From the NCBI GenBank assembly GCA_903904835.1, contig CAIVEI010000058.1:8580-72579 (forward strand): a stretch of 64,000 nucleotides of DNA. Direction: 5' to 3'. The notes beneath the pieces were generated by a model. That model had not been told where the DNA came from, searched no databases, and saw only the letters and a program-made list of their open reading frames with translations. Both the position numbers and the translations under genes were made by a program. Origin of the DNA: an uncultured Schlesneria sp. Its GTDB lineage: Bacteria; Planctomycetota; Planctomycetia; Planctomycetales; Planctomycetaceae. This document shows, piece by piece, positions 17,801 through 64,000 of this stretch; the stretch's first letter is position 1; each line of letters starts with the position of its first letter.

Positions 17801-20665
17801 CTCTATCTGGATGGTGCCACACAAACTCAATACGGGTTCGCCCCGCTGCCCGAACAGACATCACCATCAGACGCCAACGCGGCCATGGCACGGCAGCAGA
17901 TGGCTCGCGATATTTACACACTGCTTTACACTTTCTGTTCCGTGCAGACCAACGGGACAAGTGGTGATGTCGATTATCGGAACCTCACGACGGCACCCAC
18001 TGCGGCACAGACGAAAGAAATGGCCCAGTTTGCCGTCAACCTGGTCGACGCGTTGGACGCTGACAACATCGTCACCGCGTTTTACTACGACACGGATCTC
18101 TCACAAAACGGACACGGATGGCAGACAACTTCAACGAGTACGCAAGACTATATGTATGGTATTGACGGAATCGCAGGTAATGCCGATGACAATGTTGTCT
18201 ACGGTGTCGAACGTCAGTTGCTGACATTCTCGGAAGCAGCCGCATTCATCGTGCAGCGTGTGGCAACAGACAGCAATATGACGATTTTTGACGACTCACA
18301 GACGTCGGCTAATGGCCGGCCTTACATTTTCTTCGAATTACAAAACGTGTCACCGATCCCCGTGGCGCTCGCCTCATCGTCGAATATCACAGCGCAGACC
18401 GCCACGACCATGGCGGACTGGCGTGTCCGCATGGTATCCCCCACCGACGAAACCAAGACATATAGCACACTTTACTTTCTACCTGGTTTGACAACGTCGT
18501 CGGGCGCGACGCCAAGCAATTTTCTTTCGACAGATCCGACCGGTGGGGCAAATCCTGTTTTACTTCCTGGTGCCGTATTTTCAGTCGCTTCGCAGGATGG
18601 TACCGACACAGTGATGGGGGCCGCCCGGACAAGCGATTTTCGTGCTGACACGTCGTTGATGGGGTCCTCTTTTCCACTTGCGGTTCCTACGGCGAGTAAC
18701 ATTGCAGGTGGCTTGACTGATATGCCAATTACTCCGTCGACGAAGACAACCGATATGGTTCCAAGGTGCAATCTTGATCTCGTGTGGAGTTACCCAGATA
18801 ACAACAAGCGTTTTCTGGTGACAACGGGAACGAATGACACGGCAGCACCGACCCCCGGCGCTTTTGCTGTTCAGTTAGGTCAACTTGCTGCGGCAAATCC
18901 CAATAACACCGTCCGGTTGATACTGGAAAGACGGGCAGCCGCCGGTCCAGACGTACCGAACAATATCGTTTGGGCTGCTGTCGATAAGACGTCTTCGACG
19001 GCGACAGGTGCAGGTGCAGGTGCACCACCTGTGCCAGGCGGAACAAGCGATGTCGTTATCGGCAAGGTAACGCCGCCAGCGAATGCTGCGGGTGGAGGTG
19101 CAGTAACATCGGCGCTTCAAAATGTGAAGAGCTACCCTCGTTCGATTCCATTGCTCAGCGCAACAACATCGACGAACACAACCCTGGATAAGAACACCAT
19201 CAATGCTGCGAGCACCACGACGGCAAACACGAATCTCAATTCCGTCGCGTGGCAATTGCATAACGACCGTGACTTTGGCTCGCTGAGCGAACTGCTTCTA
19301 TTGCCGCTCTATGGTTCAGATAACCTGACTTCTGCGCTCGCAAACGTGATTGATACCAACACGGGGCATATCTCAACCAGCGAATTTTACGAAGCAAATC
19401 AAAAATACTACCCGACAATTGCGGCGGCTCGTTTCCTGCGTCCGGACAATCCTGATTACACGAAAAACGGAACAACGCCCAATTACGGGAATCGCTGGTA
19501 TCGCCTGTTTGATTTTCTGGAGGTTCAGAACCGAAGCCATCAGCATCCAGCGATTGTCGGTACTCCACCTTCCGGGGGGATTCTCAACAAAGGGAACGCG
19601 ACAAATTATGGCATTCCGATCACCTTTAACAATCCAGGGATGCCGGGTGTCACGTCGTATTACCCGACGGGCTATCCGACAACAGTGACACAAGGGGGAA
19701 ACCCACCCGATGGTCCCTTCCCGACAACGATGATGTTTTCAGCGCCGTTTGGATATCCACAGTATTTTGGCTGGCCTAAGACGCACGGGCTGTTGAATCT
19801 GAACACGATCCGCGACCCGCAGGTATTAGCGGCCTTGATTGATGACGATCAAGTGATTCAAGATCCCCGCGTTAATCTCAGTGGGTCAGCAGGGCCGTAT
19901 CTCGATTCCGCTGATCCGTCAGATGCCAACAGGAAGTGGTGGTTCGAATTCCTTAAAGCCCGAGATTCGCGATATGTAGCACCCGCAAACGGGACCGCAT
20001 ATGCCGTCGATCCCGTCACCAATCTGTTCGTTCCAGGCACGGCAAATTCGCGGCCATTCCGAAGTGTCGATACTGTCGGTCCACAGGCAGTGAGTATCGT
20101 GGCGGGGGCAAACCTCGATAGCCAGCTTGAAAATACGATTTTTCGGTCATTACCAATGGACTCAGGATCAATTACTAACAGCGTCAACGAGTCCCGTCGG
20201 CTGTTCGAAGTCGGTAACAACGGGACCGATCATATCGGGCCGATTGACACCGAAGCGAGCGGAAATCCTCTTCATCCATCGGCGCGCTTTCGGTTGATGT
20301 CCAAATTACTCAACAACACAACGACCCGCAGCAATTCTTTCGCGGTTTACATCACGGTTCAGTACTACGAAGCGGTGCAGGTTTCCGGGTTTGTTGGCAC
20401 AGGTCAGAATGCGACTCCGACCACCGCTGTGCAAATCGGCGGTCGGCTGGATGACGCACCGACGCATCGGGGATTTTTCATCGTGGATCGCACGGGTGCG
20501 ATCGAACAAATGAAAATTCTCGCGACGAACAACGGCGGTACGACCAGTGGTGTTAGCTCAAACAGCTATAGTTTCAATGCGAATACCGACAAAACGGGCC
20601 TGCTGGTTAATCTGAACGGGATCAGGTGGAAAGATCTGGTCCTTTACCGTCAAACGATGAACTGA
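14801..20665 (+). CDS. giant GspK/PilX-like pseudopilin-family protein (~1954 aa), putative pilus-tip adhesin
   Basis: RRGSTLIIVVALLGMLAFLGFVF is a pilin-like helix without Glu+5, as in GspK/PilX. The gene sits last in the G-H-I-J-K order. The C-terminal TRSNSFAVYITVQYYE...RGFFIVDRT resembles GspK C-termini. Acidic DxDxDG-type loops are present. ATG at 14801; the track start at 14696 is a TTG. Confidence 0.65.
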   Translation: MKPIPFARQNPARIETRRGSTLIIVVALLGMLAFLGFVFYTFAKQEKANAASFAKGAQILKAPSLEPDSLFDFALQQIILGPPDAYTQSILWGGRHSLLANMFGRDGVPWNGEGVNLIQDPSGQPHVDMNFNGLYNDPNDNQLLINFVDSPAANSGTWSSGTSDAVWGYQGSTNFKIFRGTGNTNTNLNFYIPEPDVNYNSPNIDSLFLSYDGIALDGTANTTNSRRVIIPSFLRPQYLRLAGTVLLEDVNRNGILDPANGSNPGEDSNGNGQLDDWYQLPAFANQVMRPHPNHVCVDGNGNPIFADSNGKNVLARYINSIRYYTLKNSGVSLRRPFTSLAANDGSTPGTFAPPESSLPTPTTNSSATVASSTTPGSLGVWTPGAGASPNNVSVGAGDIDLDVDTDGDGVMDAILMDLGFPPVRRGDGKLVVPLFAISIRDLNGLLNVNATGNLSGNLNLTGPAGLGAINSGTTPPAVPPTQLGFRQTGGTYSSNKWTGVVSTPDNLSKSNLGLSTYEINIQRALTANPDRNAANLDNSLLGSEAATQLSYFLQQFDTSINTYTLSQPGRSITELANLEWLLLNIGRPGFQLGLAHSATHLYGAINTIYAGRMGDPTRLWNFASSQTLTDIPKPGLSTIWAGGTTTNWPLAANSTLPNPDDNNNVNEGEAIFNTRWGTPLDFRGSGQAFQRYTFGPDGKPGFANQDDDANGVIDDISEEGWSNSDDVLAYGKYPEFAHYSPNPSGTSAIYSLNYKPGGNPITPWLSWPTYQGYHSYNGSTGGVRWGDQQTTGYYQWLMPGSHWDSLLDDPAEAIIDPVLMSPAYLNFVNYLYKLTQDSSSSNPIPPGYLPPSPLQGLTSTATASYSNSISNDAVFGPEEMLFLQGSSADGRLTDSRSRLADLMPGNLVASQNAPSIRKRLTTVSQDRREFGLGVADVGGVTTSGGNSTSGGLRSWEVLTSGFPPSLTNGTANPYRQELYSFLQQSNTSGVVSQKLNVNRWLYLDGATQTQYGFAPLPEQTSPSDANAAMARQQMARDIYTLLYTFCSVQTNGTSGDVDYRNLTTAPTAAQTKEMAQFAVNLVDALDADNIVTAFYYDTDLSQNGHGWQTTSTSTQDYMYGIDGIAGNADDNVVYGVERQLLTFSEAAAFIVQRVATDSNMTIFDDSQTSANGRPYIFFELQNVSPIPVALASSSNITAQTATTMADWRVRMVSPTDETKTYSTLYFLPGLTTSSGATPSNFLSTDPTGGANPVLLPGAVFSVASQDGTDTVMGAARTSDFRADTSLMGSSFPLAVPTASNIAGGLTDMPITPSTKTTDMVPRCNLDLVWSYPDNNKRFLVTTGTNDTAAPTPGAFAVQLGQLAAANPNNTVRLILERRAAAGPDVPNNIVWAAVDKTSSTATGAGAGAPPVPGGTSDVVIGKVTPPANAAGGGAVTSALQNVKSYPRSIPLLSATTSTNTTLDKNTINAASTTTANTNLNSVAWQLHNDRDFGSLSELLLLPLYGSDNLTSALANVIDTNTGHISTSEFYEANQKYYPTIAAARFLRPDNPDYTKNGTTPNYGNRWYRLFDFLEVQNRSHQHPAIVGTPPSGGILNKGNATNYGIPITFNNPGMPGVTSYYPTGYPTTVTQGGNPPDGPFPTTMMFSAPFGYPQYFGWPKTHGLLNLNTIRDPQVLAALIDDDQVIQDPRVNLSGSAGPYLDSADPSDANRKWWFEFLKARDSRYVAPANGTAYAVDPVTNLFVPGTANSRPFRSVDTVGPQAVSIVAGANLDSQLENTIFRSLPMDSGSITNSVNESRRLFEVGNNGTDHIGPIDTEASGNPLHPSARFRLMSKLLNNTTTRSNSFAVYITVQYYEAVQVSGFVGTGQNATPTTAVQIGGRLDDAPTHRGFFIVDRTGAIEQMKILATNNGGTTSGVSSNSYSFNANTDKTGLLVNLNGIRWKDLVLYRQTMN

Positions 20666-49675: not shown

Positions 49676-52165
49676 TTACTTCAATGCCTGCCATTTGATC
49701 CAGCCTTCGTCAAGGAATTTGGCGAAGTCACCGTCTCGTTTTTCGAGTCCGAAGAAGCTTGAAAGAACCGTTTTTCCGTCAGGTGTCACGACCGCGTAGG
49801 CTGGAAGGGTGACGTCACCAAACCAGTTTTCTTGCAGCGAGACGTTACGAGCCAGCAATCGAGCTGCTTCCTCTTTGTCGTCGATATTGGGAACTCGGTC
49901 TGTGTAGATCTGTGCTTGGACAAACTGTTCCAGCCGACGGTGGTTCTTTGGTCTTGCCATGCGGATTTCCATCAATCGACAGTTCGTACAAAACACGCCT
50001 GTAAAGTCGATAAATAGCGGCCGGTTTTGGGCAGTTGCCGTGAGGACGGCCTTGTCGAAATCCTTTTCGTATTCAATTTTATCAACCCGTGCGGGTGCGA
50101 AGGCGATCAATTGATTGACGAACCAGGTTTCTCGATCCGGCTGAATCAGGCCGATGCCGAATAATCCGCTGAGCATGAGAAAGCCAATCGCGAGTAAGAT
50201 TCGGATTGGCGATAAGCCTTGAACCGGACTGTCGTGCGACAAACGAAATTGTCCGAGCAAATACAAACCTGTACAGAACGAGATCACGGCCCAGAGCGTC
50301 ATGACGTTAGTGAAGTCGAATAGCCAGGGAACGGAGTACCATTGCTGGTCGACGATACTGATGTATTTGACCGCGACACCCAGTTCGACAAAACCCATGA
50401 CGACCTTCACGGCGTTCAGCCAGCCGCCGCTCTTGGGGAGCGATTTTAACGTTCCTGGCATTAACGCTAGCACAAAGAATGGAGCCGCGAATGTTGTTCC
50501 AAATGCGAGCATTCCGAGCACTGGCCAGTAGTATTCTCCCTGGGCTGCTGCTGCGAGCAATGAGCCGACGAACGCGAAAGTACAACTGAACGACGTTAGT
50601 ACGAATGTCAGTGCCATGAAAATCACACCAACGTAACCGCCGGTTTGTTCGCCAGTTGCTGTGAAACTTACCAGCCACGACGGAACTTGAATTTCGAAGA
50701 GTCCCAGCATGTTGAGGGCAAATGTAAAGAAGATCGAAGCGAGGAACAGGTTTAATATCCAGTTGTTGGCAAGTTCATTTGGCTTCGTTGCCCCAAAGAT
50801 CGCTGCGATACCGACTCCGATGAGTACGAATGAAATGACGATGGCAGCGGAGAAAACTGTGGCGAGGACGATTGGACGTCCACCCTGACGTTCGTTCTGT
50901 TTCAGGAAAAAGCTGACGGTGATTGGCACCATGGGAAAGACACAGGGTGTCAGCAACGCCACGAGTGCCGCTCCGACTGCGGTAATCAAGAAAACAAACA
51001 GTCCTTTATCCTGCGGTCGGGCACCGTGCTTTTGTTCAACCTCAACAGCCGCTGGTTCCTGAAAGAAGTCGATGTGCGCCGGGGGTTCAATGTCATCGCT
51101 GGTGACGCCAAGGGTAAACGATTCCTTGCGCGGTGGCAGGCAACTGTCTTTGCAGGTTTGATAGGTAATCGATCCTTCGACACCAAATGCACGCGGACGG
51201 GTATCGGGTAATACCTCAAATTCCTGAACCCAGCTTACTTCTTGATGATAGACTTCTTGCCGAAGTATCCGCGTTCCTTCGTCAATTTCTTTGATTTCGG
51301 GTGGGCGATCGGGAACGAGGCCTTTACCAATTGTCTTTAGTCCATAAACCTTGTCCAAAACAATTTCTGTCGCTGTTCCCCCTTCACCTTCGAACGTAGT
51401 CGAGAACGTATGCCACTCAGGATCGAGAGCCACGGTGATTCTTAGCTTGACCGTTTTGCCAGCAGATGACTTTGTAGGAGCCAATTGAAAACGCAACTCG
51501 ACCGGGTTCGTCTTTCCTTTCTTCGGACGTTTCGTGAACTTGTACGGAACCGCTGGGACTTCCGCTTTGTTTGCTACCGTACCGTTCGAAACAAGGGTGG
51601 CATGCAGCTTCGCTGCGGGTTTGATCAAATGGCATTCACCACCCGGTCCTTCAGAACAATACTGTCCTTCAAGCTCCAGATCGATGACGACTTTTTCGAT
51701 CTCAGCGGTTGGCTCGATACGAAACTTTTTTGTCCATGATACGTCGCCGTGAAACTTGGAAAGCTTTTGATTGAAATCAGGGTCATGTTTGGTCTCGGGT
51801 GGTCGATCTGACTGGTATTCAGAATCAACCGCCTCTAGACCCACAGATTTCACTGTCGCGATTTGAGTCCGTCCGCCAAAGTCACCGGTGGTGGCGTAGA
51901 TATAGGTTCCAGGTGGCAGCTTCGCAGTGATTGTCAGGAGGACTTCGTCCCCTGGCTTTGCATCTGATGGCGTTAAGGTCGCGTTGAAGACCGGCTTCTC
52001 AAATGACTTTGGAGCAAGTGAGCCACCCAGGAGATCTTCGAACTGCGACGATTGTGCATCGACAGAGCCAACTAGTCCCCAAGTGACGATCAACAGAGAC
52101 GCTAGCCGACTTACGGAGTTATACCGAATGTGGAAATCCTTCGACGAACAGACCATCGTTTGCAT
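49676..52165 (-). CDS. DsbD-family thiol:disulfide interchange protein (two DsbD-N-like domains, CcdA-type TM core, C-terminal thioredoxin fold)
   Basis: LTPCVFPMVPITVSFF (CcdA/DsbD TM1 motif), C-terminal FIDFTGVFCTNCRLME (CxxC), N-terminal ...CSEGPGGECHLIKP and ...CKDSCLPP motifs. Signal peptide follows the ATG at 52165 or 52156. Confidence 0.75.
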   Translation of the reverse strand: MQTMVCSSKDFHIRYNSVSRLASLLIVTWGLVGSVDAQSSQFEDLLGGSLAPKSFEKPVFNATLTPSDAKPGDEVLLTITAKLPPGTYIYATTGDFGGRTQIATVKSVGLEAVDSEYQSDRPPETKHDPDFNQKLSKFHGDVSWTKKFRIEPTAEIEKVVIDLELEGQYCSEGPGGECHLIKPAAKLHATLVSNGTVANKAEVPAVPYKFTKRPKKGKTNPVELRFQLAPTKSSAGKTVKLRITVALDPEWHTFSTTFEGEGGTATEIVLDKVYGLKTIGKGLVPDRPPEIKEIDEGTRILRQEVYHQEVSWVQEFEVLPDTRPRAFGVEGSITYQTCKDSCLPPRKESFTLGVTSDDIEPPAHIDFFQEPAAVEVEQKHGARPQDKGLFVFLITAVGAALVALLTPCVFPMVPITVSFFLKQNERQGGRPIVLATVFSAAIVISFVLIGVGIAAIFGATKPNELANNWILNLFLASIFFTFALNMLGLFEIQVPSWLVSFTATGEQTGGYVGVIFMALTFVLTSFSCTFAFVGSLLAAAAQGEYYWPVLGMLAFGTTFAAPFFVLALMPGTLKSLPKSGGWLNAVKVVMGFVELGVAVKYISIVDQQWYSVPWLFDFTNVMTLWAVISFCTGLYLLGQFRLSHDSPVQGLSPIRILLAIGFLMLSGLFGIGLIQPDRETWFVNQLIAFAPARVDKIEYEKDFDKAVLTATAQNRPLFIDFTGVFCTNCRLMEIRMARPKNHRRLEQFVQAQIYTDRVPNIDDKEEAARLLARNVSLQENWFGDVTLPAYAVVTPDGKTVLSSFFGLEKRDGDFAKFLDEGWIKWQALK

Positions 52166-52385
52166 CCTGCGAAACTTTGTAAACAGAAACGTAGGCCGAA
52201 ATCTCGGTAGAGACATTACGACTAAATGCTTGTAACCGTTGGTTCGCATCTTAACCGCAGGTCGGTCTTTGCCCAACGTGAGTTTGATCGCTGGCTGCCA
52301 AAATTCAATATTGGCGAAAAATCCAACATAAGGTATGCGACTTACGTAAGTTCGTGAATGTCGAAAGCGCAATCAAGTACCACAT

Positions 52386-55300
52386 TCAAATCCACGTTTC
52401 GGGCTTCTTCCATGCCGTAAACACCGTGCTGACAATAAATAGAACAAAGCTGGCGGCATTTAGTGGAGCGGGCAAGATGCAAAACCCGAGAACTCCAAGC
52501 ACTGCTGTGACAATTGGCAAAAGGTGAACCAACCGACGAATCCCTGACGTATGGCGAAGCGAGAACAGTATCGTAGTTCCGACCAATAGCCACGCCGCTG
52601 TCCAGGCAAGACCCATCGCCCAGCGGATCGACTCTCGTGGTCGAATGTCGAGTGCAAGTTTCGGGTCGCCTCCGGCTTTTGTGAAGACGAGCTTACGACC
52701 TGAAACCGGCAGGTTGATCCCTAGAGATAGGCCACCCGGCTGTTTCCATGCTGGTGCAGCGTTGGCGCCAAGATTGCTGTTTTGGATTTCTCCACCCAGA
52801 GAAATACCGTGTTCAGCCGTCTGACGATTGTCTTGAGCAAGTTGTCCGGCCGGCGTACCCCATGGCGCATTTGGGGGAACTTGAAAGCTAAAACGAGAGG
52901 AAGACGTAATCGGGGCAGGTGACGAATCGGCTCGTGGTTGATTCAGAGTCCCTGAATTATCCCGAACATATCGATACCCAATTCCAGCCCCCGATCCAGG
53001 CATGGGTGAACGACCCATGCCACCTCCGCCCCCACCCATGGCTCCATTTCGTGTGGAGCTATTACCGACATAGTCAGATTCAAAACTCAGTGCTGGATTC
53101 GATGACTGCGGGGCGGCCGATGGGCTATCACGATTCCATAGCGTGCCGTTCCCGAAGTTTTCAGTTAAGTTCATGGTGTTCGATGATCCGTCACCATTAT
53201 TCATGTAGCCTCCGAAAAGGTTGCCCTGTTGCCCAGGCTGTACCACCTGTTGGGGTATCACTCGGTTTTGTCGAAGAGTGTTATTGTTTGTGACGGTCGT
53301 ATTCAATTCATCGATATTGATTCCGTTCGACATACGGAGTTGCGCTCGGTTTCCTTTATTGTTACCTGCTTCATTCGATGGTTTTGACGATTTTGAATTA
53401 TCGGCCAGTGAATCCTTTCTGCCTGAAGTCTGTGATCTACCCTCTTTTTTCGATTCGGCGACCGGTTCACCATCCTGAATGCCCAAGCCGAAATTGAAGT
53501 TTCCGTCAGACAACGAATCGTCGGCTATGGAAATGAGTTGTCCACCGTTGGAATTAAACACCGCCAACTGTTGATCGTTGACGATCGCAGCACCTTCCGC
53601 CAGACCCTCAGTCTGAATGTAGTTTAATCCTTGCGTAGCTGCGGGATTATTCGTTTTCGATAGATATTCGTTTGTCTTCTGGCTTTCTTCACGGGCAAGC
53701 CTTTCCACTTCCGACAGCCGCTTCATTACCTCGGCTTTGTTCTTGGCAAATTCGGCACCGCTTGAACTGTCGCTATAGATTTGCAGAGCCTTGCTTAACT
53801 GATTCAAGTTGTCTGCCGCGACTCCAAGTTGTTTCAGGTTATTCCGCGTTTGAAGTCGACGATTGCTTTCGCGGATTTGTTCGAAGAATCCCAACAGTTC
53901 ACCCGCCTCTTGAAGTACCGCATTCCCGTACAGACTGTCCGAGCCATCCGATAGTGACAAATTGTGTTTGGCGGTCGAATGGGCCGCCTGTGCATCAAGA
54001 TCCTCGGGCAGATAAACCGTCCAGCGGGTTCTGGCGACGGGGATACCATAATCGGCATCCTCCTGTTGGCTGATAATTTGAGGTGCAGGAACAGAAAATT
54101 CTTCACGGGTCAGTGGTACAGATTCCGGTAATGGACCGGAAAGTCGGCCGCGCCAGACGATTTTGACGAGAAACGATAGGCTGGCAGCACTGGTCTTGGG
54201 TAGTGCAATCAAGTGTGCGGAGGCCCCATTCAGCGAGGGGAGTTTGGTTGTGACGGCTCGGGAGGGTTGACCGGCGACAAACACCGACAGCAATTCGGTC
54301 CCTTCCGGCATCTTCAACGCCAGGAACTGTCGAGATCGGTTCTTGATCGTGTAAAGGGCCTGAGCCTGGTATGTCCCGTCGCGACTGAGGACCGTCGTCA
54401 GATCGGCGATGTTGACCGATGCGGGGGCACTCGCCTGTTGAGCGAATGTATGCAGCGACCATCTGGGGGCTGTGAGAAGCGATTTGACTCGAACGAGCTC
54501 TGTGGCTTGATCAACAAACTCTTGCCCGATAATCACAGGAAGGTCTTCACGCTGGACGGATTCCACCAGCGAGGGATCGACGGACGAAAGTTGGCCGAGC
54601 GACGAATTGATCAGAAGAACGTACTGCCGCTGTGATTCCACCGCTTTTTGTTCGTGCTCAAATACGATCGCCGGGGCGAGGACTTCGGTTGTTGCAGGAG
54701 GAAGTGTTGTCGTTGCCGTCGCAAAGTACTTGCCGCTAACGGGCGATCGCAGATGGATCGTCCAGCGCGTTCGGTTGTTCCCCGCATCAATATGCGTTGC
54801 TTCGCGGATTCCTGTCCCCTGAAAGTCGAGCTTTCCCGCGAGCCAATCGGGGGTCGTCAATGTCAACGTGTCTGTCTTTGCCACATCGATCTGCCACTGA
54901 AGTGCCAGCATATAAATGACAGCAACATCAGTCGCGGTGACCATTGACAAGCCGTTTGCCGAAAGCATCGGGGTTGCCTGAGTCAGATTCAGTGCGATCA
55001 CTGCCGGAGTCGTGCTATTGGACGAGAATGCAAATTGTGCTGGTTGAGCAGAGCGAATCGCACGAACTTCACCACTGACTTGCGTCGCATCCACTTGGCG
55101 CCATCCCTCAAATGACTCAAGCGTTCCTTTAAAACCTTCGTCTAACCAGACCGTTGCTTCGGAATCGAGTCGAGTTGCATCAAGTGGTTGTGGAAACTCA
55201 ATCGATGCTTTTGCATTATTGCGTTGCGTAAACCCGCCCAACACGACTTCCATTAATCCCAGTCGAGGCCCCTTCAGTTCAATCGTCAAGATCGTGCTGT

Positions 55301-58300
55301 CATCTGTTTTGGCAACGTAATAGTCGCGCAACGCCGTGGCCTGAACATCCAGCAACACGAAGTTTTCTGGTAAAGAGACGGACAGCGACGAGCGTGGTGC
55401 TCCCGTCAGGTTGTAACGAAAACGAGTCGTCAATTGCTGTTTGCGAAGCGAGACGAATGCCGCCTGTTGTGACGTGATATGTGTCTGCGACTCCAGTCGA
55501 GTCGCTCTCAGGTTTAATGTGAATGGTCGCTTCGAAAATCGATACGCCAACTGAGGTGCCACATTGGGACGGCTGATTGGAATCTGCGTCGCAAACTTAT
55601 CGCCATCAATTTGTGACAGTGACTCAACCTGCTCCGCCCGGATCGAGAATTGATTCCCGGCGAAGACTGCGATCTGACCAATTTCATTGGTGATTTCCAG
55701 CGGAGCGATCTGAGGAATAGCGATTACCTGCGGATCGGTGCCAACTTTGACATCAAGAAATGTTTCAATGGTCAGTCGAGTCTGATCGGTGACATTACGT
55801 CGGAAGATAACTCGTAACTTGCGTGCCGCTCCCTCGCCCTGTAGTTCCCAGCCACCGACGTCCGGCCCGTTAACTGCTTGTAATCGCAGGGTGTCGGGCA
55901 GCGTGAAAGAGGTATCCGCGATCCCACCCTGGCGAACGCGGTATGAGAATCCATGACTGACTGATGTTCCTGCATCAGTTAAAGTAATCGCTTCAACAGA
56001 ATCAACGTGAATGACGGCAGTCGCTGCGCCTTGGGCTTGCGGCGGTTGCCATGCGACGGCCACGTCACCACCTTTGTCGATTGAGAATTCCACTGACTGC
56101 AATTCGTTCTGACTCACACGACGAAAAATCGTTGACGAACCATTCACCCTCACGGACAAATTTTTGCCTGGAAGTTCAAACACCAGCTTACCTGCAGGAA
56201 CAGGCAACAGTGGAAGTGAGAATGAACCTGTCGTTCCGGACAGCTTGGCGGGGACGCCGAAAATGAAGTCGATGACGTGCAAGCCGGGTTTTGTAATCGC
56301 GACCTTAAAACAACCCGCGTTGGTGATCAATGCTGATGTTTGGCCGTTAAGCTTGACTTCACGCGCAGCGACCTGGCCAACGGGCAGGTCGACGAGCAAT
56401 TGACCGTCCACAAAGCTTTTGACAGCATAACGAGCGGTGACTTCGATCATCGCTCCTTCGGGATTTTTTTCGTTCGCGACAAGTTTTACCGCATACATCG
56501 CTTCAAAAATCCCGCCGGCTTGTGGTGCGGGTTGTTTCGAAACCTTATCGGGGTTGGCGAGTCGATAGAGTTGCAGAAATTGCTCATGTGAAAGGAAAAC
56601 CCGCTCAGACGCGAGTGGTTCGGTTCCCGCATCAAACGGGACGATCAGTGTCGTGGTCGGCTTCAGTTCGGCAACCGCTTGTCCGTTCGCATTTGATTTT
56701 TCCGTATTCGGTTTTTCTCCCTGGGCATATGCGGTATGCGAGATGAGAAACATCATCGCCAACGCCGTCGTTGTTGTTGGGAGTTTTAGCCCTACCAGGC
56801 GCGGGCAGCGGTACGCACAGCAATGAACACAGCCACAAATTAGCCAAGAAACGATTGATATCAGGGTTCCAACGAACAGGCCATCCAGGTTCGGTTGCCA
56901 GCTCATGGGAGCAAACGGCAACAGAGCGATTGGAATGATCAGCCCCATTGTGGCGAATCCCACCTTGGTTGCGGTCGAAGCCCGTCGCAGAAACCAACCG
57001 ATCGTTCCAATCAGTGCGATGACAAAGATTCGCAGTGCTCCCCCGGAATTCCGGTCAATGTAGTCGACTTCCAATGGAATACCGTTCGTCGATGTATCGG
57101 CACCAACATAATGAAAATTCTTGACTCGGCTTCCCGCTGGCGGAACGAAATCGATCGCCAGCGAAAGAAGTCCTAAGTCTCGAGTATTTTTCGTTCCCTT
57201 CAAGTTCTGGCCTTGATCGATGTTGAGACTTAGTTGCTGTTCAAAAGGGGCTACTTCACCTTCTTCTGCCGCCGGTTGTTGGGCAACATCCATGTGATCC
57301 ATTAACCCATCTACTGGTCCGTTTATGTCTCTTGGATTTCCATTGAGTTGCATGTTCATGACACCAGGTCCAGGTCCGTCAACCATCGGTCCAGGCCGAT
57401 TCATCATCGCAGCAGGCGGAGGCATCACTGACCCAAAAGGTGCGGTTGCTAACGGTGCTTCTGGAGCCATCGGATGATTCCGAACCGTATGTGATTTCAG
57501 CGCAACATTGTCCTGCAATCCTTCCAACTTCCGCGACTCATCTGTCGCTGGTGCGGGGGACTTTTTCGAAAGTGCTTGCATTCTCTTCAGTCGCTGGAAG
57601 TTCGTTTTTTCATCGCGGTCCATGATCGGGGATTTGTCATATCGCTCCAAGACGGAATCTTCGTCGAGATAATAGTGCTCTGGAAGAGTTGAGGTTGTTT
57701 CCCCGTCGCCCCGATTCGCCCGCTCAAGCTCCCTCATTTTCATATCGTTTTTGAGCTGAGTCCGACGTGAGGACTCTCTCGCTTGCTGCACTGCTGGAAG
57801 CATTAGCGGAACGATCATGGCGAAGATCAGGATCATGACGAACAGAGTCACCACCACCTGCTTTTTTCGATAACTGTAAGTTAACAGTGCGATTACACCG
57901 ATCGTTATGATCACTGCCAATAACTGCCAACCAAGATCGACCAGCGTCGGAACTCGCAGATCCGAATTCCATGTTGACAAGAAGCTTGTTCGATCAAGTG
58001 GTTGTCGCGGTTCCAACGGGCTGTGACTGCCAATCAATCGAGTTTCTGCAGGATAATGAAGATCCCATTTTTGCTCCAGAACTTCGACCGGCAAAGCCGT
58101 TCGCTGGCCTGATTCGACCGTCAACGAGGGAGGGGTCTGCTTCACTGTACCAAGCTGCGAATTGGTCGCGACTGCGGATCGATAGAACAATTGCAATGTT
58201 CGCAAGCCACCAGCAGTCTGCGGCGAAGGTGTATCTGTCGCCGGCAATGGGATGAGGTAGACGTCGCCACTTCGCCGAATTTCCACCGGATGGCCATCAA

Positions 58301-60788
58301 CCAGAGTTGCCCACAGCGTTGAGCCGTTTGGTAGCGTCACATGCAGTCCCTGAACGCCAACAATGCTTAGCTGAAACGTTGCGCGATGCTGAAGTTCGCC
58401 GGTCCCACCAAGGATTGTCGATATTTCCAGTAACGGACAGATGGCTGTCGGAACGGGAAGCTTTTCGAATTTCTGCTCGCTCAGCGTCAGAACGGCACCG
58501 GGTGACGGAGCACGGTGTACCGCGACGATTCGTTCTTTTGGTTGGTAAAAGACGTTTGGCAGGTCGAGTGGATCGACTTCAGGAAGAGCAGTTCCACCCG
58601 CATCCGTCGCTGTAATCGTTAATCGTTGTTCGCCCCCCGCCTCAACTGCCAGGTATCCATTCTGGCGTTCCGCATCGATAAACCGACACTGTGTTACGAT
58701 GAAATCTTTCGACTCGCCACGTGGTAATTCAATATCGCAGACAACCAAAGCCTGCCCTCGCAATCGCTGTTCGAAATGCAACGTCCAGACCCGTTCACCA
58801 TTCTGTGGGGCTGCCGCTTTCTGTTCGATGATCCGAGGGCTGGGGCATTCGAATCGCAGTGCCGAGCCTGCTGATTCCGGCAGCGCGACGTTGATCGTTC
58901 GGATTCCGCCACCCTGAACTTCGATCACGCTTTGTATGAACGTGTGAAACGTCTGCGGATCAATTCGCCCAAACGTCACGGTTTGTGCCGCAATTCTTGA
59001 CGGCTTGCGAGTGATCTTCAGCTTGCCTGAATACCGTGTATCCTGTGATTGAAACCGCAATCGCTCGAACGCCGCTTTCAATGGTTGTGGGTCCAGACCC
59101 GTCAGATCGAACGCTTCGAGGTCAAGGTCGTCGTCACCACGAATCACAAACGCTCCTTCCGAGAGACTCGATTGCGGCAAGAACAATTCAGGCAGGTTGA
59201 CGGTGATCGGTTCCGCTTCCACGGGCCAGCCTTCGACGTCACGCCGCAAGGCCAGACGGATCTGGCCGCTGGTCTCTGCTGCCAGTGGTGGATCCAGCAG
59301 AATCCGTAATTGATTTGTACCCGGCTGATCCAGGCTGACCATCTGCCACTTCAGTGGTTGATTGTCCCTCAGAATCGTCAGCACCTGCCACTCAGCGGGC
59401 AAGCGAATGTCGAGTTCAAACAGAGAGGCGAAATGAGTCTCGATCGTGAGGGCTGCCTGTAGCTCAAGTCCAGTCGTGTTGACGTCCAATACAGCAGCGA
59501 CCGCCGATTGAACTTCGCGTTCTTTAGGTTGCGTCGTCAATCGCAAGTAGAAGTCAGATTGCCAGATATCAAACCGAAGTGATTCGGATGCATTTACCTG
59601 GGACACGTCATCAGGCATATCCGCAGCAGGCTTTTGTTCTTGAGTGGCCCGACGCACCCCGGCTGATTCATCGACACGCACACGAACGCCCGCTGGATAC
59701 TGGATGACAACTTGGCCGATGTGTGAAGTCACTCCTACGATCTGCAGCGGCGGGACCGTCCAGGCCGCTCCGCTTTCAACGGCCATGACTCCTTTGAACG
59801 AGATTTTTCTCGCTCCGTCGAATGCCTGCCCGAACGTCAGCGAGATATTTGTTCGCTGCGTGTCATTCGGGTCATCTGACAATTCCCAACTTTCCAGCCC
59901 GGTTGATTCCACGTCCGCAATTTCAAGGTATCTGGGCACTGAAAACGATAGCCGATCGACCGGCTTGCCAAAGATTTGCAAAGTTGTCAGCGCGTGCCAC
60001 GTCACCTCGCCGGGAGCAACATGTAGGCCGTATCCGGTTGAAGCGAACGTCAGCGAATCGGCTGCATTTTCAGCGGCGCGGTCGGTAATACGTAATTGGA
60101 TTCCGCCGGTCCCGCCAATGGCAATTTTATAATCGGCGACTTGATCAAGCGGAGCCGGGCGTTCCAGTTGTAAATTGCCGATCAACAAGCGTTTCCCGGC
60201 GGGCAACGATAACGTCAGCGTTCCGCTGGGTGCTCGTAGTAACGAGAATGCGGCAACCTGATCGCTCCCTAGCGCATTGAGTTCGGTCGAGAGCTGCAGC
60301 TTGAGAGAATGTTTTCCCCGCGTGTCCGTAAACAGAGAGACCGATCCATCCGTATGCCGCCCGACAAGCGCCGGAGCGTCGTCAACGAGAACCTGTTCCA
60401 GTGACAGCCGCTGCAAGGCAAATCGCGACTCACGCCATTCGTCGTCGAACTGAGTCAACTCGGCAGTCACCGAAAGCAGCAACTGGTCGCCGACGATTTG
60501 TGCGGCGTAATCGGCACTCGTTAAAACGACGGCAATCCCGGCAGGAACGGCGTTCTTTTCGGCATTCGCCTTCGCTTGTGTCAGCAACACATCAAACTTG
60601 GCTCGGGGCAGCAACACCCCTTGTTTGTCCCGTTCGATGATCACATCAAGATCTTCAACCGGAACAAAGACCCGCCGTGCTTCGGTCAGGTCGGTCACCA
60701 GATCACGTAATTGAGCCTGTGCGAGCATCGGTGATGCGGACGCGAAAAGCAGCACCGCCATCAGCCATCGAGAATATTGTGTGTTCAT
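52386..60788 (-). CDS. giant (2800 aa) membrane-anchored protein made of two tandem 'ectodomain + multi-TM anchor' modules
   Basis: Signal peptide MNTQYSRWLMAVLLFASASPMLAQAQ. TM clusters near residues 940-1000, 1230-1320 and 2700-2790. No motif from a characterised family recognised. Confidence 0.75.
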   Translation of the reverse strand: MNTQYSRWLMAVLLFASASPMLAQAQLRDLVTDLTEARRVFVPVEDLDVIIERDKQGVLLPRAKFDVLLTQAKANAEKNAVPAGIAVVLTSADYAAQIVGDQLLLSVTAELTQFDDEWRESRFALQRLSLEQVLVDDAPALVGRHTDGSVSLFTDTRGKHSLKLQLSTELNALGSDQVAAFSLLRAPSGTLTLSLPAGKRLLIGNLQLERPAPLDQVADYKIAIGGTGGIQLRITDRAAENAADSLTFASTGYGLHVAPGEVTWHALTTLQIFGKPVDRLSFSVPRYLEIADVESTGLESWELSDDPNDTQRTNISLTFGQAFDGARKISFKGVMAVESGAAWTVPPLQIVGVTSHIGQVVIQYPAGVRVRVDESAGVRRATQEQKPAADMPDDVSQVNASESLRFDIWQSDFYLRLTTQPKEREVQSAVAAVLDVNTTGLELQAALTIETHFASLFELDIRLPAEWQVLTILRDNQPLKWQMVSLDQPGTNQLRILLDPPLAAETSGQIRLALRRDVEGWPVEAEPITVNLPELFLPQSSLSEGAFVIRGDDDLDLEAFDLTGLDPQPLKAAFERLRFQSQDTRYSGKLKITRKPSRIAAQTVTFGRIDPQTFHTFIQSVIEVQGGGIRTINVALPESAGSALRFECPSPRIIEQKAAAPQNGERVWTLHFEQRLRGQALVVCDIELPRGESKDFIVTQCRFIDAERQNGYLAVEAGGEQRLTITATDAGGTALPEVDPLDLPNVFYQPKERIVAVHRAPSPGAVLTLSEQKFEKLPVPTAICPLLEISTILGGTGELQHRATFQLSIVGVQGLHVTLPNGSTLWATLVDGHPVEIRRSGDVYLIPLPATDTPSPQTAGGLRTLQLFYRSAVATNSQLGTVKQTPPSLTVESGQRTALPVEVLEQKWDLHYPAETRLIGSHSPLEPRQPLDRTSFLSTWNSDLRVPTLVDLGWQLLAVIITIGVIALLTYSYRKKQVVVTLFVMILIFAMIVPLMLPAVQQARESSRRTQLKNDMKMRELERANRGDGETTSTLPEHYYLDEDSVLERYDKSPIMDRDEKTNFQRLKRMQALSKKSPAPATDESRKLEGLQDNVALKSHTVRNHPMAPEAPLATAPFGSVMPPPAAMMNRPGPMVDGPGPGVMNMQLNGNPRDINGPVDGLMDHMDVAQQPAAEEGEVAPFEQQLSLNIDQGQNLKGTKNTRDLGLLSLAIDFVPPAGSRVKNFHYVGADTSTNGIPLEVDYIDRNSGGALRIFVIALIGTIGWFLRRASTATKVGFATMGLIIPIALLPFAPMSWQPNLDGLFVGTLISIVSWLICGCVHCCAYRCPRLVGLKLPTTTTALAMMFLISHTAYAQGEKPNTEKSNANGQAVAELKPTTTLIVPFDAGTEPLASERVFLSHEQFLQLYRLANPDKVSKQPAPQAGGIFEAMYAVKLVANEKNPEGAMIEVTARYAVKSFVDGQLLVDLPVGQVAAREVKLNGQTSALITNAGCFKVAITKPGLHVIDFIFGVPAKLSGTTGSFSLPLLPVPAGKLVFELPGKNLSVRVNGSSTIFRRVSQNELQSVEFSIDKGGDVAVAWQPPQAQGAATAVIHVDSVEAITLTDAGTSVSHGFSYRVRQGGIADTSFTLPDTLRLQAVNGPDVGGWELQGEGAARKLRVIFRRNVTDQTRLTIETFLDVKVGTDPQVIAIPQIAPLEITNEIGQIAVFAGNQFSIRAEQVESLSQIDGDKFATQIPISRPNVAPQLAYRFSKRPFTLNLRATRLESQTHITSQQAAFVSLRKQQLTTRFRYNLTGAPRSSLSVSLPENFVLLDVQATALRDYYVAKTDDSTILTIELKGPRLGLMEVVLGGFTQRNNAKASIEFPQPLDATRLDSEATVWLDEGFKGTLESFEGWRQVDATQVSGEVRAIRSAQPAQFAFSSNSTTPAVIALNLTQATPMLSANGLSMVTATDVAVIYMLALQWQIDVAKTDTLTLTTPDWLAGKLDFQGTGIREATHIDAGNNRTRWTIHLRSPVSGKYFATATTTLPPATTEVLAPAIVFEHEQKAVESQRQYVLLINSSLGQLSSVDPSLVESVQREDLPVIIGQEFVDQATELVRVKSLLTAPRWSLHTFAQQASAPASVNIADLTTVLSRDGTYQAQALYTIKNRSRQFLALKMPEGTELLSVFVAGQPSRAVTTKLPSLNGASAHLIALPKTSAASLSFLVKIVWRGRLSGPLPESVPLTREEFSVPAPQIISQQEDADYGIPVARTRWTVYLPEDLDAQAAHSTAKHNLSLSDGSDSLYGNAVLQEAGELLGFFEQIRESNRRLQTRNNLKQLGVAADNLNQLSKALQIYSDSSSGAEFAKNKAEVMKRLSEVERLAREESQKTNEYLSKTNNPAATQGLNYIQTEGLAEGAAIVNDQQLAVFNSNGGQLISIADDSLSDGNFNFGLGIQDGEPVAESKKEGRSQTSGRKDSLADNSKSSKPSNEAGNNKGNRAQLRMSNGINIDELNTTVTNNNTLRQNRVIPQQVVQPGQQGNLFGGYMNNGDGSSNTMNLTENFGNGTLWNRDSPSAAPQSSNPALSFESDYVGNSSTRNGAMGGGGGGMGRSPMPGSGAGIGYRYVRDNSGTLNQPRADSSPAPITSSSRFSFQVPPNAPWGTPAGQLAQDNRQTAEHGISLGGEIQNSNLGANAAPAWKQPGGLSLGINLPVSGRKLVFTKAGGDPKLALDIRPRESIRWAMGLAWTAAWLLVGTTILFSLRHTSGIRRLVHLLPIVTAVLGVLGFCILPAPLNAASFVLFIVSTVFTAWKKPETWI

Positions 60789-60834
60789 AAGAAACCTCGT
60801 AGCCGAGGAATGGTGTTCGTTGAGTTGATCGATG

Positions 60835-63800
60835 TTACGAGGGTGTGGCGACTGCCGGTGGCGGTTCCGCTGGGGGCGGTGTCGTCGTCGGCGGCTCGAC
60901 CGTCGAAACGAGCGAGGGCTTCAAACTCAATAAGCCATGAATTAACCAGATCGCGATGAGTGCTCCCAGCCCGTACGAGGCGACCTGCAGGCCATTAAGA
61001 ATCAGGTCGTAATCCTTCAGGGCATAGGCACAGGCAGTAAAAAGCCCAAGGATGACCAGCGTCAACTTGTTGTCCCATGACGTGTTTCGCAGGATCAGGG
61101 CAATCAAAACCAGGGCACCGCTGACGATCCATGTATAAAACGGCAGATGCCACCAGCCGACTTCGATCTGCTTACTTCCACCAAGGTTCATGTACTGAAA
61201 CCATTTTCCTTCCGTCGGAAAATCAAAGATTCCGCCGGTGTCATGTCCGATCCAGGCGTCGAGATTCTGTTCGCCAAACGTTGAACTGGATCGACCCAGA
61301 ATGGATTCACGCAGACTTGTCCTTGTCTGGACACTGAAATTCTGCTGAATCCGGTTTCCTTCCTTAATGGTCGGAGTGCCGATAAGCGAATACTCAGGTG
61401 GGACCCAGATTTTGGTGTAGAGCTGTTGCACCGCGACACCAGCGTTTCCATCACCTCCAATGACTGGCAGGCGGGCGAGTAGCTTTCCGCCTGCATTGGC
61501 GAAGGGAGCGGGATTGAATGAATGGCGGAAGACGAGAGACAGCGTAAATGGTTCGTCAGAAGACTTCGTACGTGCGACACTGATGAAGTACGAGATCCAG
61601 CCCTTATCCCCCTTGATATCTGCTTTTTCGAGTGCGGTCTGTTTACGGTCAACAAACACTCCAAGCACATCCACGTTCTCTGGAAGATCAATCCGAAGTC
61701 GCTGACGTTCGCTTGACTTCAGCACGTACCTGCAGCGGTAAATGCCGACACCCGCACGATCCAGGACCATTTCGACCAGGGCCTTGCTGACAACTGTTTC
61801 AATCACGCCCTGGATATCGTATTTGCTCGATGAGAGGTCAATTTTCGCCGGTTGCTTGAAGTACCGGAATGCGACGAATCCGTCCTGAGCGAGGTTCTGT
61901 AATTCCCGAACATCAATCGGTTCGACATCGCCACCGCTCGCCGTGGCCGAAACGGACAATGCTCGATCCTTGAGCACCGTGATTTCGCCGATTGTCCGCG
62001 ATAATCTGATGTCCCGTTTTCCCTGAGGACCGTCGGTCTTGTCATACGGATCGATGGCCTGGATCGCTTCAATCGTGGCAGACTCTTTATTAACTCCCTC
62101 GCCCGCAGTCGGCATAAGGTCATACTTGATTTCAAACGACTGCGTTCCAAGAACATCGCGCGGCATCACGACCGTACATGTCACCCAGCCATCAACTGCC
62201 AGACTCTTTTTGATCGGAGGCGACGACCCGTCGGTGGTTGATGTGAGTTGCAGTCGATCAGCAACCGCTTCCGGAGCCAAGAATCGAAAGGTATCGATCC
62301 CTGCGTATTCAATGATGTAGGTCAGTTGAGTCGTGACTTGAACTTGCCCCTGTTTGACATTCGCTCGGGTTCCCGCCACTGCGGTCAGTCGAGTCGATTT
62401 GCGAACGGTTCGAACGGGAATCTCGATCGGTCGTCGGTTAAACAACCACGACGAAACCAGCCGTGCATTCGGGACAACTTCGGGTTGAGGTGCGGGGTCA
62501 CGTTGAACTGAAACAAGCTTTTCGTCATCAGTGTTCACTTCAATCGCTTCCGGAGCGTAAATCTGAACTTTGCCATTCTCAAGTTCGGTCCCAAATGGTT
62601 CCAGCAGCGGCAATAACTGGTCTGTCTTCTCGGCGGCGGGGTCCAGAGTACGGGTCGAAGTGACCACCAGCGACAGCGTGCCTGATGTCTTTTCCCGCAG
62701 GCTGACTGTCAGCAATGTTTTGTCGGATGAGACATAGAATTGCTTCATCTTGTCGCAAACGACGTTCTCGATCGTCAGCTCTTCCGGCAGTTTGAACTTC
62801 AATTCGAACACTCCGGCACGGTCGATCGTATAATTTAAAATCGACCTGAGTCGAAGCTGATCGTCTCGAAAGACCAGTTGCGATGCATGGTCGACGATCA
62901 AGCGTGGTTCGACCGGCTTCGAAAGGAGTTTTAAGCGAAGCGAGGGATTGTAATAGTTGTAATACAAGGCTCCAGGACGTCTGATTTTTGGATCGATATC
63001 ACCTTCCGCCACTCGTAGAAGCCCACGTTGTTCTTCAACGGTTAAAGTCAACTCACTTCCCGCCTTCACCGCGATTTGGCCGCTTTCACGAATGACATCC
63101 ATCGCATGAATGCCGAACGCAGTCGCTCCATCTTGACCGGCAACATCAAATGCCTCAACCGGTGCCGCCCGTTCTGTATGAACGCCAAGTTGAACTTTGC
63201 CATCGGCACGACTGAGAAGCTCGACAGTGACAATCTGCTGATTCTCTTCGTCAACGGCCTTCCACTCTTTGACCTTTGCGTCGGAGGTGACGTCAAGAAT
63301 CCGATGCCCTTTCGGAACGGCAAGTTTGAACTTTTCCAATTGACCTCGAAGGATTTCGTATGTCAACCAGGTATCCGTGTGAATCAGCCCGTCTTCCACG
63401 GTCACCAGCGTGTGGTTTGTGACGCTGGCGAGCAATTCCATATCGGGCTTCGTTCCGACCCGAGGATGCCAGCGGACCGAGATTTTTTCGGTCGAACCGA
63501 TGGTTGCTTTAATTTTCGATTCTTTTGCCGCAACTTCCACCGGCTGAGTGGCCAGTTTTGGTTTCAACTCCATCGTCTGGTCGGCTTCAGGAACCAGCAG
63601 CTCAAAATCAGTGATTCCAACCGCGGGGACGTCCAGTTCCAGACTTTTCCCCTCAGGAGCGGTCCGGACGCGCGCGGTCAATTCGAGCGAAATCTTGTGC
63701 TCGCCAGCAGTTGGCAAAAGTAATGAATAAGTTCCGTTTCCCGTACCACGCAGCAGGACTTTTCCCGTATCGGATGTCAGCTTGCCGATCGCGGCTTCGC

Positions 63801-64000
63801 CGAATTTGACCGGAATCTCAGCCCACCCTTTTTCCAGAACCTGAACGACAAACGTCGCCGAGATTTGAGCGACATCTTTTTCCACCTTCCCTGAGTAGCT
63901 GGCTGAAGAAATCAACCCAGAAACGGGTGGGTGATCCGGTTTCCGTAGGCCGTCTCCGAACGCCTTCTCCCAAAGCTTGATGTAATCCGCATAGGGGACA
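60835..64000 (-). CDS. large membrane-anchored protein paralogous to the modules of the 2800-aa gene; 5' end outside the window
   Basis: The frame stays open from the track start (TTG 63915) to base 64000. C-terminal 3-TM anchor and a PPTTTPPPAEPPPA tail. A 46-nt gap and a gagg RBS precede the downstream giant gene. Confidence 0.75.
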   Translation of the reverse strand, partial: VPYADYIKLWEKAFGDGLRKPDHPPVSGLISSASYSGKVEKDVAQISATFVVQVLEKGWAEIPVKFGEAAIGKLTSDTGKVLLRGTGNGTYSLLLPTAGEHKISLELTARVRTAPEGKSLELDVPAVGITDFELLVPEADQTMELKPKLATQPVEVAAKESKIKATIGSTEKISVRWHPRVGTKPDMELLASVTNHTLVTVEDGLIHTDTWLTYEILRGQLEKFKLAVPKGHRILDVTSDAKVKEWKAVDEENQQIVTVELLSRADGKVQLGVHTERAAPVEAFDVAGQDGATAFGIHAMDVIRESGQIAVKAGSELTLTVEEQRGLLRVAEGDIDPKIRRPGALYYNYYNPSLRLKLLSKPVEPRLIVDHASQLVFRDDQLRLRSILNYTIDRAGVFELKFKLPEELTIENVVCDKMKQFYVSSDKTLLTVSLREKTSGTLSLVVTSTRTLDPAAEKTDQLLPLLEPFGTELENGKVQIYAPEAIEVNTDDEKLVSVQRDPAPQPEVVPNARLVSSWLFNRRPIEIPVRTVRKSTRLTAVAGTRANVKQGQVQVTTQLTYIIEYAGIDTFRFLAPEAVADRLQLTSTTDGSSPPIKKSLAVDGWVTCTVVMPRDVLGTQSFEIKYDLMPTAGEGVNKESATIEAIQAIDPYDKTDGPQGKRDIRLSRTIGEITVLKDRALSVSATASGGDVEPIDVRELQNLAQDGFVAFRYFKQPAKIDLSSSKYDIQGVIETVVSKALVEMVLDRAGVGIYRCRYVLKSSERQRLRIDLPENVDVLGVFVDRKQTALEKADIKGDKGWISYFISVARTKSSDEPFTLSLVFRHSFNPAPFANAGGKLLARLPVIGGDGNAGVAVQQLYTKIWVPPEYSLIGTPTIKEGNRIQQNFSVQTRTSLRESILGRSSSTFGEQNLDAWIGHDTGGIFDFPTEGKWFQYMNLGGSKQIEVGWWHLPFYTWIVSGALVLIALILRNTSWDNKLTLVILGLFTACAYALKDYDLILNGLQVASYGLGALIAIWLIHGLLSLKPSLVSTVEPPTTTPPPAEPPPAVATPS

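Follow-up and report, generated by a model that had tools for sequence, protein, structure and literature searches.

Two co-oriented minus-strand open reading frames (ORFs) at the end of a 64,000-nucleotide stretch of DNA from an uncultured Schlesneria sp. (the whole stretch is called the window below) form a gene pair that consists of three ancient paralogues of one module. In each module a large all-β ectodomain is followed by a β-hairpin and a three-helix membrane anchor. The window comes from a Schlesneria-like planctomycete of lake-water metagenomes; the sequencing runs found for it are four metagenome DNA runs, and none of RNA. Gene 1 (60835-63999, minus strand) encodes module 1; 1054 codons are visible, and its 5′ end is cut by the window edge, so that some 60 codons of the N-terminus, with the signal peptide, are missing from the window. 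Orthologues of gene 1 are 1104-1180 aa long, with the N-terminal signal peptide present. Gene 2 (52386-60788, minus strand) starts 46 nt past the gene 1 stop and encodes P0001, a protein of 2800 aa in which modules 2 and 3 are fused (2586-3129 aa in orthologues). We favour, with a probability of about 0.5 for the reading as a whole, a three-armed periplasmic scaffold anchored in the inner membrane, whose arms 2 and 3 would be made as a polyprotein and cut at an internal signal.

An earlier sequence-only reading of the window had proposed three paralogous modules, each with an ectodomain, a pre-anchor motif and three transmembrane (TM) helices, and two of them in one ORF. All peptide strings that it quoted are found in the two ORFs, and BLASTP, hhalign and a profile search agree on the paralogy, which exceeds chance by far. 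With single-sequence BLASTP, module 1 matches module 2 over 831 collinear columns (E-value 1.8e-13) and module 3 with an E-value of 3.6e-9; modules 2 and 3 match each other only marginally. Profile-profile comparison (hhalign) of the orthologue alignments of each ectodomain gives significant similarity for all three pairs at 100% probability, with E-values of 1.1e-40 (ectodomains 1 and 2), 4.7e-45 (1 and 3) and 1.5e-39 (2 and 3), and each pair is collinear across 820-841 columns. The pre-anchor motif and anchor segments match more weakly between modules, at 75-95% probability. A module profile built solely from one-module proteins of several phyla matches both halves of the 2800-aa ORF in hmmsearch (5.6e-80 for ectodomain 2; 1.7e-76 plus 3.2e-22 for the other half) and no other ORF in the window. 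Off-diagonal hhalign matches show that each ectodomain is itself made of repeated domains.

Hydropathy, loop charge and the AlphaFold2 (AF2) model of module 1 give one plan for the module: a signal peptide, an all-β ectodomain, a two-stranded hairpin and three TM helices that run out-in, in-out and out-in. All coordinates of the pair given here are on the minus strand. Ectodomain 1 (61255-63999) is a string of β-sandwiches with about 58 strands (mean predicted local distance difference test, pLDDT, 83.6). Pre-anchor motif 1 (61150-61254; GGIFDFPTEG...IEVGWW) aligns with motifs 2 and 3. In the AF2 model it is a two-stranded β-hairpin (strands 932-939 and 944-951) which directly abuts the first TM helix, and it corresponds to the pre-anchor motif of the sequence-only reading. 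Hydropathy places three helices after every such motif. In anchor 1 (60907-61149), which has three TM helices by hydropathy and is oriented N-out and C-in, the AF2 helices are 952-972, 975-995 and 997-1024, and a Pro-rich cytoplasmic tail follows (60838-60906).

Module 2 begins with an N-terminal signal peptide (60717-60788; ...SPMLA↓QAQ, the arrow marking the predicted cut here and below) that is kept in orthologues. Ectodomain 2 (57954-60716) is followed by a TM hairpin specific to this module (57777-57953, residues 946-1004, identified by hydropathy), with the cytoplasmic loop YSYRKKQ; this extra helix pair was not listed in the sequence-only reading. Then come a periplasmic low-complexity linker of about 200 residues, rich in Pro, Met and Gly (57180-57776) and of different length among orthologues, pre-anchor motif 2 (57048-57179; LSLAIDFVPPAGSRVKNFHYVG...LEVDYI) and the three TM helices of anchor 2 (56811-57047, from hydropathy). 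The loop charges of anchor 2 are +3, 0 and +3, consistent with N-out and C-in. Its cytoplasmic end carries a Cys cluster, WLICGCVHCCAYRCP = CGCVHCCAYRCP (56805-56843, P0001 residues 1316-1328), which many Planctomycetaceae orthologues share in a Cys-rich form (up to CCxxCCxW) and others lack; it might serve in metal binding or acylation. Ectodomain 3 (54003-56723) is again all-β (mean pLDDT 84.6). It is followed by a helical segment, probably a coiled coil, and a linker of about 400 residues rich in Gly, Asn and Ser (together 52743-54002, assigned by sequence), and then by pre-anchor motif 3 (LSLGINLPVSGRKLVFTKAGGDPKLALDI) and anchor 3 (together 52413-52742), which again has three TM helices and a cytoplasmic C-terminus. 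The loops placed in the cytoplasm have +3 K/R each, whereas K/R is missing from the periplasmic loop. From this positive-inside topology, all three ectodomains are predicted to face the periplasm. The chain is cytoplasmic after anchor 2, and therefore the next hydrophobic segment must cross outwards for a periplasmic ectodomain 3; the helix count of 2+3+1 likewise places ectodomain 3 outside.

The segment in this position is an internal Sec-type signal sequence (56724-56777; TTTTALAMMFLISHTAYA↓QG, junction peptide ...TTALAMMFLISHTAYA↓QG), preceded by the basic n-region RCPRLVGLKLP (56778-56810). The string RCPRLVGLKLP / TTTTALAMMFLI / SHTAYA↓Q has what is expected of a Sec-type signal peptide: a basic n-region, a hydrophobic core of about 7-15 residues, a polar c-region and small residues at -3 and -1. 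Over 55 aligned orthologues, position -1 is Ala in 51, Gly in 3 and Ser in 1, and position -3 is A/V/T/G/S in 50 (the rest are L in 3, P in 1 and C in 1). Position +1 is Gln in 34 of the 55. The segment is tripartite: its n-region is basic, its hydrophobic core is short, and its polar c-region frequently has D/E at -4 or -5. The A-x-A↓Q/E pattern also appears in orthologues from Gimesia, Phycisphaerae (ARA↓QEPP) and Omnitrophota (LRA↓EETK). The junction had been described earlier as a signal-peptide-like relic. This description does not hold, as the small residues at -3 and -1 and the Gln at +1 are conserved from Planctomycetia to Phycisphaerae and Omnitrophota and the topology needs the segment. 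These features mark the junction as a predicted cleavable Sec signal peptide and not as a relic or a plain membrane span.

An alternative keeps the same architecture and topology and leaves the internal signal uncleaved as a sixth TM helix, so that gene 2 would give one polypeptide of about 300 kDa with 9-10 TM helices and two arms. The junction segment exceeds the 19-residue TM hydropathy threshold in P0193, P0200 and P0225, as this alternative would have it; in P0001 it lies below the threshold. A pure membrane span is not expected to keep Ala at -1 in 51 of 55 sequences, a small residue at -3 and a polar c-region with D/E at -4 or -5. A passage of PMC2120157 further states that short hydrophobic cores favour cleavage over anchoring, and that signal peptides are thereby told from signal anchors. 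We consider the uncleaved form a doubtful alternative, and the pattern of fused and split genes bears on it from both sides.

The module 1 profile was used to fetch 80 species-level loci, and 41 of these hold an intact fused giant gene with a downstream ORF of 2500-3130 aa. The junction is readable in 45 species loci, with 41 fused and 4 split. In the three-module pair, a gene for a protein of about 1100 aa with one module precedes an adjacent gene for a protein of about 2600-3100 aa with two; every module has a homologous hairpin and three-TM anchor, and the window pair has this form. So do the pairs of S. paludicola (1113 + 2586 aa), Planctopirus limnophila (Plim_4045 and the next gene, 1173 + 2843 aa in the Logan gene call; 2660 aa for the second in the NCBI annotation), a Phycisphaerae lineage (1178 + 2595 aa, with an 8-nt overlap) and Omnitrophota (1087 + 2644 aa). 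The possibility raised in the sequence-only reading, that orthologues are three separate genes, is borne out by the four loci split exactly at the junction and fails as a general description, the fused gene being the rule. Retention of the fusion in 41 of the 45 readable loci is in line with an uncleaved chain, since covalent linkage could matter. Against it, a split exactly at the junction has been accepted on at least three occasions, as would suit two chains that function separately.

Three-gene forms are nested among fused relatives and carry inserted repeat elements. A real and independent split is seen in Schlesneria sp. GFS_11651 (P0221; 1150 + 1351 + 1570 aa), where module 2 stops just past the Cys cluster. 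The 220-nt spacer there contains a perfect 34-nt inverted repeat with a 27-nt loop (L007 9783-10000 = L021 about 12090-12206) and a second, imperfect inverted repeat of 43 nt. In a Planctomyces-like clade, L060/L050 and L051 are split, and their close relative L059 is fused and lacks the insert. L060/L050 and L051 carry two different inserts of 290-370 nt that resemble repetitive extragenic palindromic (REP) elements, both at the same point of the cytoplasmic loop before the internal signal peptide. These inserts (L060 about 17830-18120; L050 about 8667-8960; L051 about 17866-18240) are GC-rich palindromes of the CCCAGGG...CCCTGGG type. The downstream gene of L060 begins with MRWLPTLSSLCLFAFLVANSAFA↓QAPQ; the same segment is internal in L059 and is visibly an N-terminal signal peptide in L060. 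The rare three-gene forms are secondary splits made by inserted palindromic elements. As a separate observation, the insert site looks like a hotspot for REP-like palindromic elements.

Among the other irregular loci, the short form P0218 was rejected as a split, being a mis-called start within a 2631-aa ORF. L045 and L018 have frameshifts, due to decay or to errors of metagenome-assembled genomes (MAGs), and L077 has no giant gene after the module 1 gene. In L045 (13188-20884, Planctomycetaceae MAG STL-PLA41) the giant gene lies in at least five frame segments, from pseudogenisation or assembly errors.

The same loci bear on whether the 2800-aa ORF could be a recent local fusion or an assembly artefact, with module 3 made from an internal start. 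In-frame ATG ATG codons do sit within the junction helix and three-gene forms do exist elsewhere. An internal start is unlikely because the in-frame Met residues are unconserved among orthologues; starting there would also leave a hydrophobic core of about 7 residues without a charged n-region. A stop or frameshift at the junction, which the sequence-only reading had considered, does not appear: contigs from four metagenome runs, which belong to one study and are not fully independent, share an identical junction sequence. A local or recent fusion is contradicted by 41 species genomes with the intact fused gene, by its presence in further classes and phyla (Phycisphaerae and Omnitrophota), and by modules that are older than those lineages. 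The three-gene forms themselves carry repeat inserts and are nested among fused relatives, and the short form P0218 comes from its mis-called start. This explanation is largely refuted, and we regard it as extremely improbable.

The age of the modules is seen in a maximum-likelihood tree of 35 ectodomains. All m1 modules form one clade (support 96/91). Planctomycetia m2 and m3 each group with a Phycisphaerae copy on starred branches. Omnitrophota m1 and m2 join their own types, and Omnitrophota m3 is on a long, unplaced branch. The module types form clades across classes, and therefore the triplication predates the split of Planctomycetia and Phycisphaerae; the fusion is probably older than this split too. 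Limisphaerales (Verrucomicrobiota) have a two-module protein of 2685 aa with no adjoining one-module gene (L088 10001-18058). Its two modules are mutual sisters in the tree, which suggests a separate duplication or concerted evolution. The module profile matches 6357 representative clusters (50% identity) at E ≤ 1e-3 and 1703 at E ≤ 1e-30. Named members belong to Planctomycetota, Verrucomicrobiota (Limisphaerales, Pedosphaera), Lentisphaerota and Omnitrophota. Nearly all are called "hypothetical protein", and a few carry the automatic names PulG/GspG or YwqK-family antitoxin. One distant two-module relative, P0240, has an N-terminal Laminin_G_3 (concanavalin-like lectin) domain at residues 89-248 (E-value 4.6e-24), which hints that some family members bind carbohydrate.

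These observations can be put together in the favoured scheme of a processed three-armed scaffold. Each module consists of a Sec signal, about 900 ectodomain residues in stacked β-sandwiches, a β-hairpin and three anchor helices, which are predicted to lie N-out and C-in in the cytoplasmic membrane. Modules 2 and 3 are translated as one 2800-aa precursor, the internal signal sequence would re-engage Sec after anchor 2 and thread ectodomain 3 outwards, and signal peptidase I would cut after AYA(1355). Cleavage would leave three separate membrane-anchored arms in a fixed 1:1:1 proportion, and these arms may then come together by their anchors and hairpins to form a hetero-oligomeric periplasmic scaffold with three arms. 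Arm 2 would in addition bear a membrane-tethered, non-cleavable pilin-like (DUF1559) element, reduced in the window lineage to its first helix.

A precedent for such processing is the cytochrome b/c1 precursor FbcH of Bradyrhizobium japonicum, reportedly described by Thony-Meyer and colleagues in about 1989-1991 as a membrane polyprotein whose internal signal peptide is cleaved. In FbcH the internal signal is said to follow a multi-helix membrane domain and to export the next domain, so that a single complex receives two of its subunits in fixed proportion. The FbcH proteins and their function are unrelated to the giant pair, and cleavage is demonstrated for FbcH, while for the giant pair it is predicted from the junction.

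Several points weigh against the cleaved scaffold. The hydrophobic junction segments of some orthologues are long enough to remain TM helices, and the conserved A-x-A could be retained for other reasons than cleavage. The predicted TM-score (pTM) of the AF2 models is 0.43-0.45, so that the geometry between domains is uncertain. The loci examined have no conserved neighbour gene pointing to a pathway, and "scaffold" is the default reading of a non-enzymatic β-sandwich array.

The pilin-like element of module 2 is the only functional hint for the giant pair. It is a vestige of an embedded DUF1559 domain (57729-57806, P0001 residues 995-1020; LMLPAVQQARESSRRTQLKN). The string LPAVQQARESSRRTQLKN, which follows the second helix of the module 2 TM hairpin, corresponds to the start of the DUF1559 domain. 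Although P0001 itself has no match to PF07596 (268 positions) at E ≤ 0.1, its 87% identical orthologue P0126 matches PF07596 positions 1-46 (E-value 5.7e-12), and the giant orthologue P0229 (27% identical) contains the whole domain (positions 1-192, E-value 2.9e-56). The likeness is to the DUF1559 (PF07596)/"H-X9-DG" pseudopilin-like proteins of Planctomycetes and Verrucomicrobia, whose N-terminus matches the module 2 helix and LPAVQQARE..RR.Q.KN. Unlike those proteins, the element lies about 1000 residues inside a giant protein, is tethered by the preceding TM helix, and has about 25 residues left. A regular-expression scan of P0001 and 16 relatives found no prepilin G↓F-T-L-x-E motif; P0229 reads G-C-A-I-N-L-V-Q at this place, with Gln instead of Glu5. 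S. paludicola and P. limnophila have lost the element, an ancient accessory that arm 2 can do without. Module 3 has a DUF1559-like string of its own, RESNRRLQTRNNLKQLG (53799-53873, minus strand, P0001 residues 2306-2330), at the start of the helical segment and lacking a preceding hydrophobic helix; a further pilin-like element may have decayed here, or the match may be due to chance.

The complex might be a dedicated partner, as anchor or assembly platform, of a type II secretion system (T2SS) or type IV pilus (T4P)-like system that handles DUF1559 pseudopilins, with the arm 2 module docking or priming the pseudopilus. DUF1559 pseudopilin-like proteins are hugely expanded in bacteria of the Planctomycetes-Verrucomicrobia-Chlamydiae (PVC) group. 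The full DUF1559 domain after the second TM helix in distant giant orthologues and its surviving first 46 positions in close ones are consistent with such a role. So are the automatic PulG/GspG names of verrucomicrobial and other two-module relatives, which arise because of the embedded pilin-like domain, and the N_methyl or DUF1559 genes near the pair in P. limnophila and Phycisphaerae. However, an element that is decayed in Schlesneria and absent in S. paludicola and P. limnophila is dispensable for core function, and it lacks both the prepilin peptidase site and Glu5. Proximity says little, given the great number of DUF1559 genes in these genomes, and no T2SS or T4P gene is consistently adjacent. 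We consider a pilus partner unlikely.

Foldseek comparison with the PDB returned the same set of matches for modules 1 and 3: Ost1/ribophorin I, integrin α legs, and the N-terminal β domains of M1 aminopeptidase/LTA4H. CD109, alpha-2-macroglobulin (A2M) and C3 are weaker matches of both. TM-scores are at most 0.34 with identities of 6-14%, and the resemblance of the models is one of fold class only. The best E-value for module 1 (8e-10) is with Ost1/ribophorin I (PDB entries 6ezn_A, 6s7o_E and 8pn9_E), a non-catalytic subunit of the eukaryotic oligosaccharyltransferase (OST), which is also among the top matches of module 3. The likeness consists of membrane-anchored, non-enzymatic tandem β-sandwiches on the non-cytoplasmic side, and covers about 440-590 columns at 8-13% identity with TM-scores of 0.23-0.34. 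Ost1 has two sandwiches and one TM helix, whereas the module combines some seven or eight sandwiches with a hairpin and three TM helices; it also differs in having no Pfam ribophorin match and no OST partners nearby. The top match of module 3 (8.4e-10) is with the thigh, calf-1 and calf-2 domains of the integrin α legs (PDB entries 3fcs_A, 8t2v_A and 7nxd_A), similar in forming a long β-sandwich stalk that ends in a membrane anchor. Integrin has a single TM helix, while the module is without β-propeller head and FG-GAP repeats, and the TM-score is about 0.15.

The presence of Ost1/ribophorin I, CD109, A2M and C3 among these matches would also suit arms that work as binders or traps, such as A2M-like protease traps, adhesins, or ribophorin-like subunits that hold substrates of a glycosylation or biogenesis machine. 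The low TM-scores speak rather for generic sandwich strings. The CxEQ thioester motif is absent from both window proteins, Pfam models of A2M, ribophorin and BatD are unmatched even at E = 1 in 40 diverse members, and no glycosyltransferase is linked to the pair at the loci examined. Binding or trapping arms appear very unlikely to us.

As the sequence-only reading had found, no characterised family is recognised, and the three-module pair belongs to no described family. The window proteins P0001 and P0002 gave nothing above cut-off in Pfam-A 2025 or NCBIfam 20.0; with no thioester motif and few Cys residues either, they show no enzyme signature, in line with a scaffold. Among the 40 diverse single-module members searched against Pfam at E ≤ 1 no family was matched in more than one. 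Sequence searches of the PDB, with a single protein and with a profile, returned noise only (PsaE, E-value 0.01). Literature searches on Plim_4044 to Plim_4047, on giant genes and on the PVC periplasm yielded nothing relevant. Three memberships were tried and rejected. For the A2M/thioester family, in addition to the missing CxEQ and Pfam match, the Foldseek probability is 0.25-0.54 and the TM-score is below 0.1. For ribophorin I/Ost1, there is no Pfam match, the fold similarity is local (TMt ≤ 0.34) and the anchor has three helices. For the aerotolerance-operon protein BatD, no match is listed at E ≤ 1. A MoxR-DUF58-VWA operon context would be expected for BatD; a MoxR-DUF58-transglutaminase operon lies divergently beside the pair in the Omnitrophota locus only (L089 5360-9671, minus strand), and is not seen in the planctomycete loci.

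The flanking genes of the pair are not conserved beyond sub-clades. Neighbours that recur are clade-specific and divergently oriented (TPR, DUF6677 and one unknown gene), and the upstream genes vary, with an unannotated 278-aa ORF, IDH and LpxK in L029 (with L008 one of two close relatives used for the gene context) and a pseudouridine synthase in S. paludicola. The gene pair behaves as a self-contained unit. Directly downstream of gene 2 in the window is a DsbD-like gene (49676-52372, minus strand) with two DsbD_N-like domains, a DsbD_TM core and a thioredoxin-like end. A functional linkage was considered and rejected: S. paludicola, P. limnophila, Phycisphaerae and Omnitrophota have no such gene in the corresponding place, and the ectodomains of the window proteins have very few Cys residues. 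The adjacency is probably coincidental.

As a fixed two-gene unit, the three-module pair extends from Planctomycetia to Phycisphaerae and Omnitrophota; relatives occur in Verrucomicrobiota and Lentisphaerota, and the family lacks a curated model. If the internal signal peptide is cleaved, gene 2 would be a rare bacterial membrane polyprotein processed by signal peptidase, and the natural pairs of split and fused genes make this processing directly testable. The PVC envelope is unusual in its crateriform structures and its enlarged, convoluted periplasm; to our knowledge, few of its structural components are known. A more far-reaching and rather unlikely proposal is that the pair encodes a heterotrimeric inner-membrane machine found across PVC bacteria and Omnitrophota, with arms that span the wide periplasm, two of them made through a polyprotein and one with a captive, non-extractable pseudopilin; it might act as a platform or anchor for DUF1559 proteins or as an envelope ruler. 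A conserved, abundant-looking, three-armed complex that faces the periplasm would be an obvious candidate for a component of the PVC envelope.

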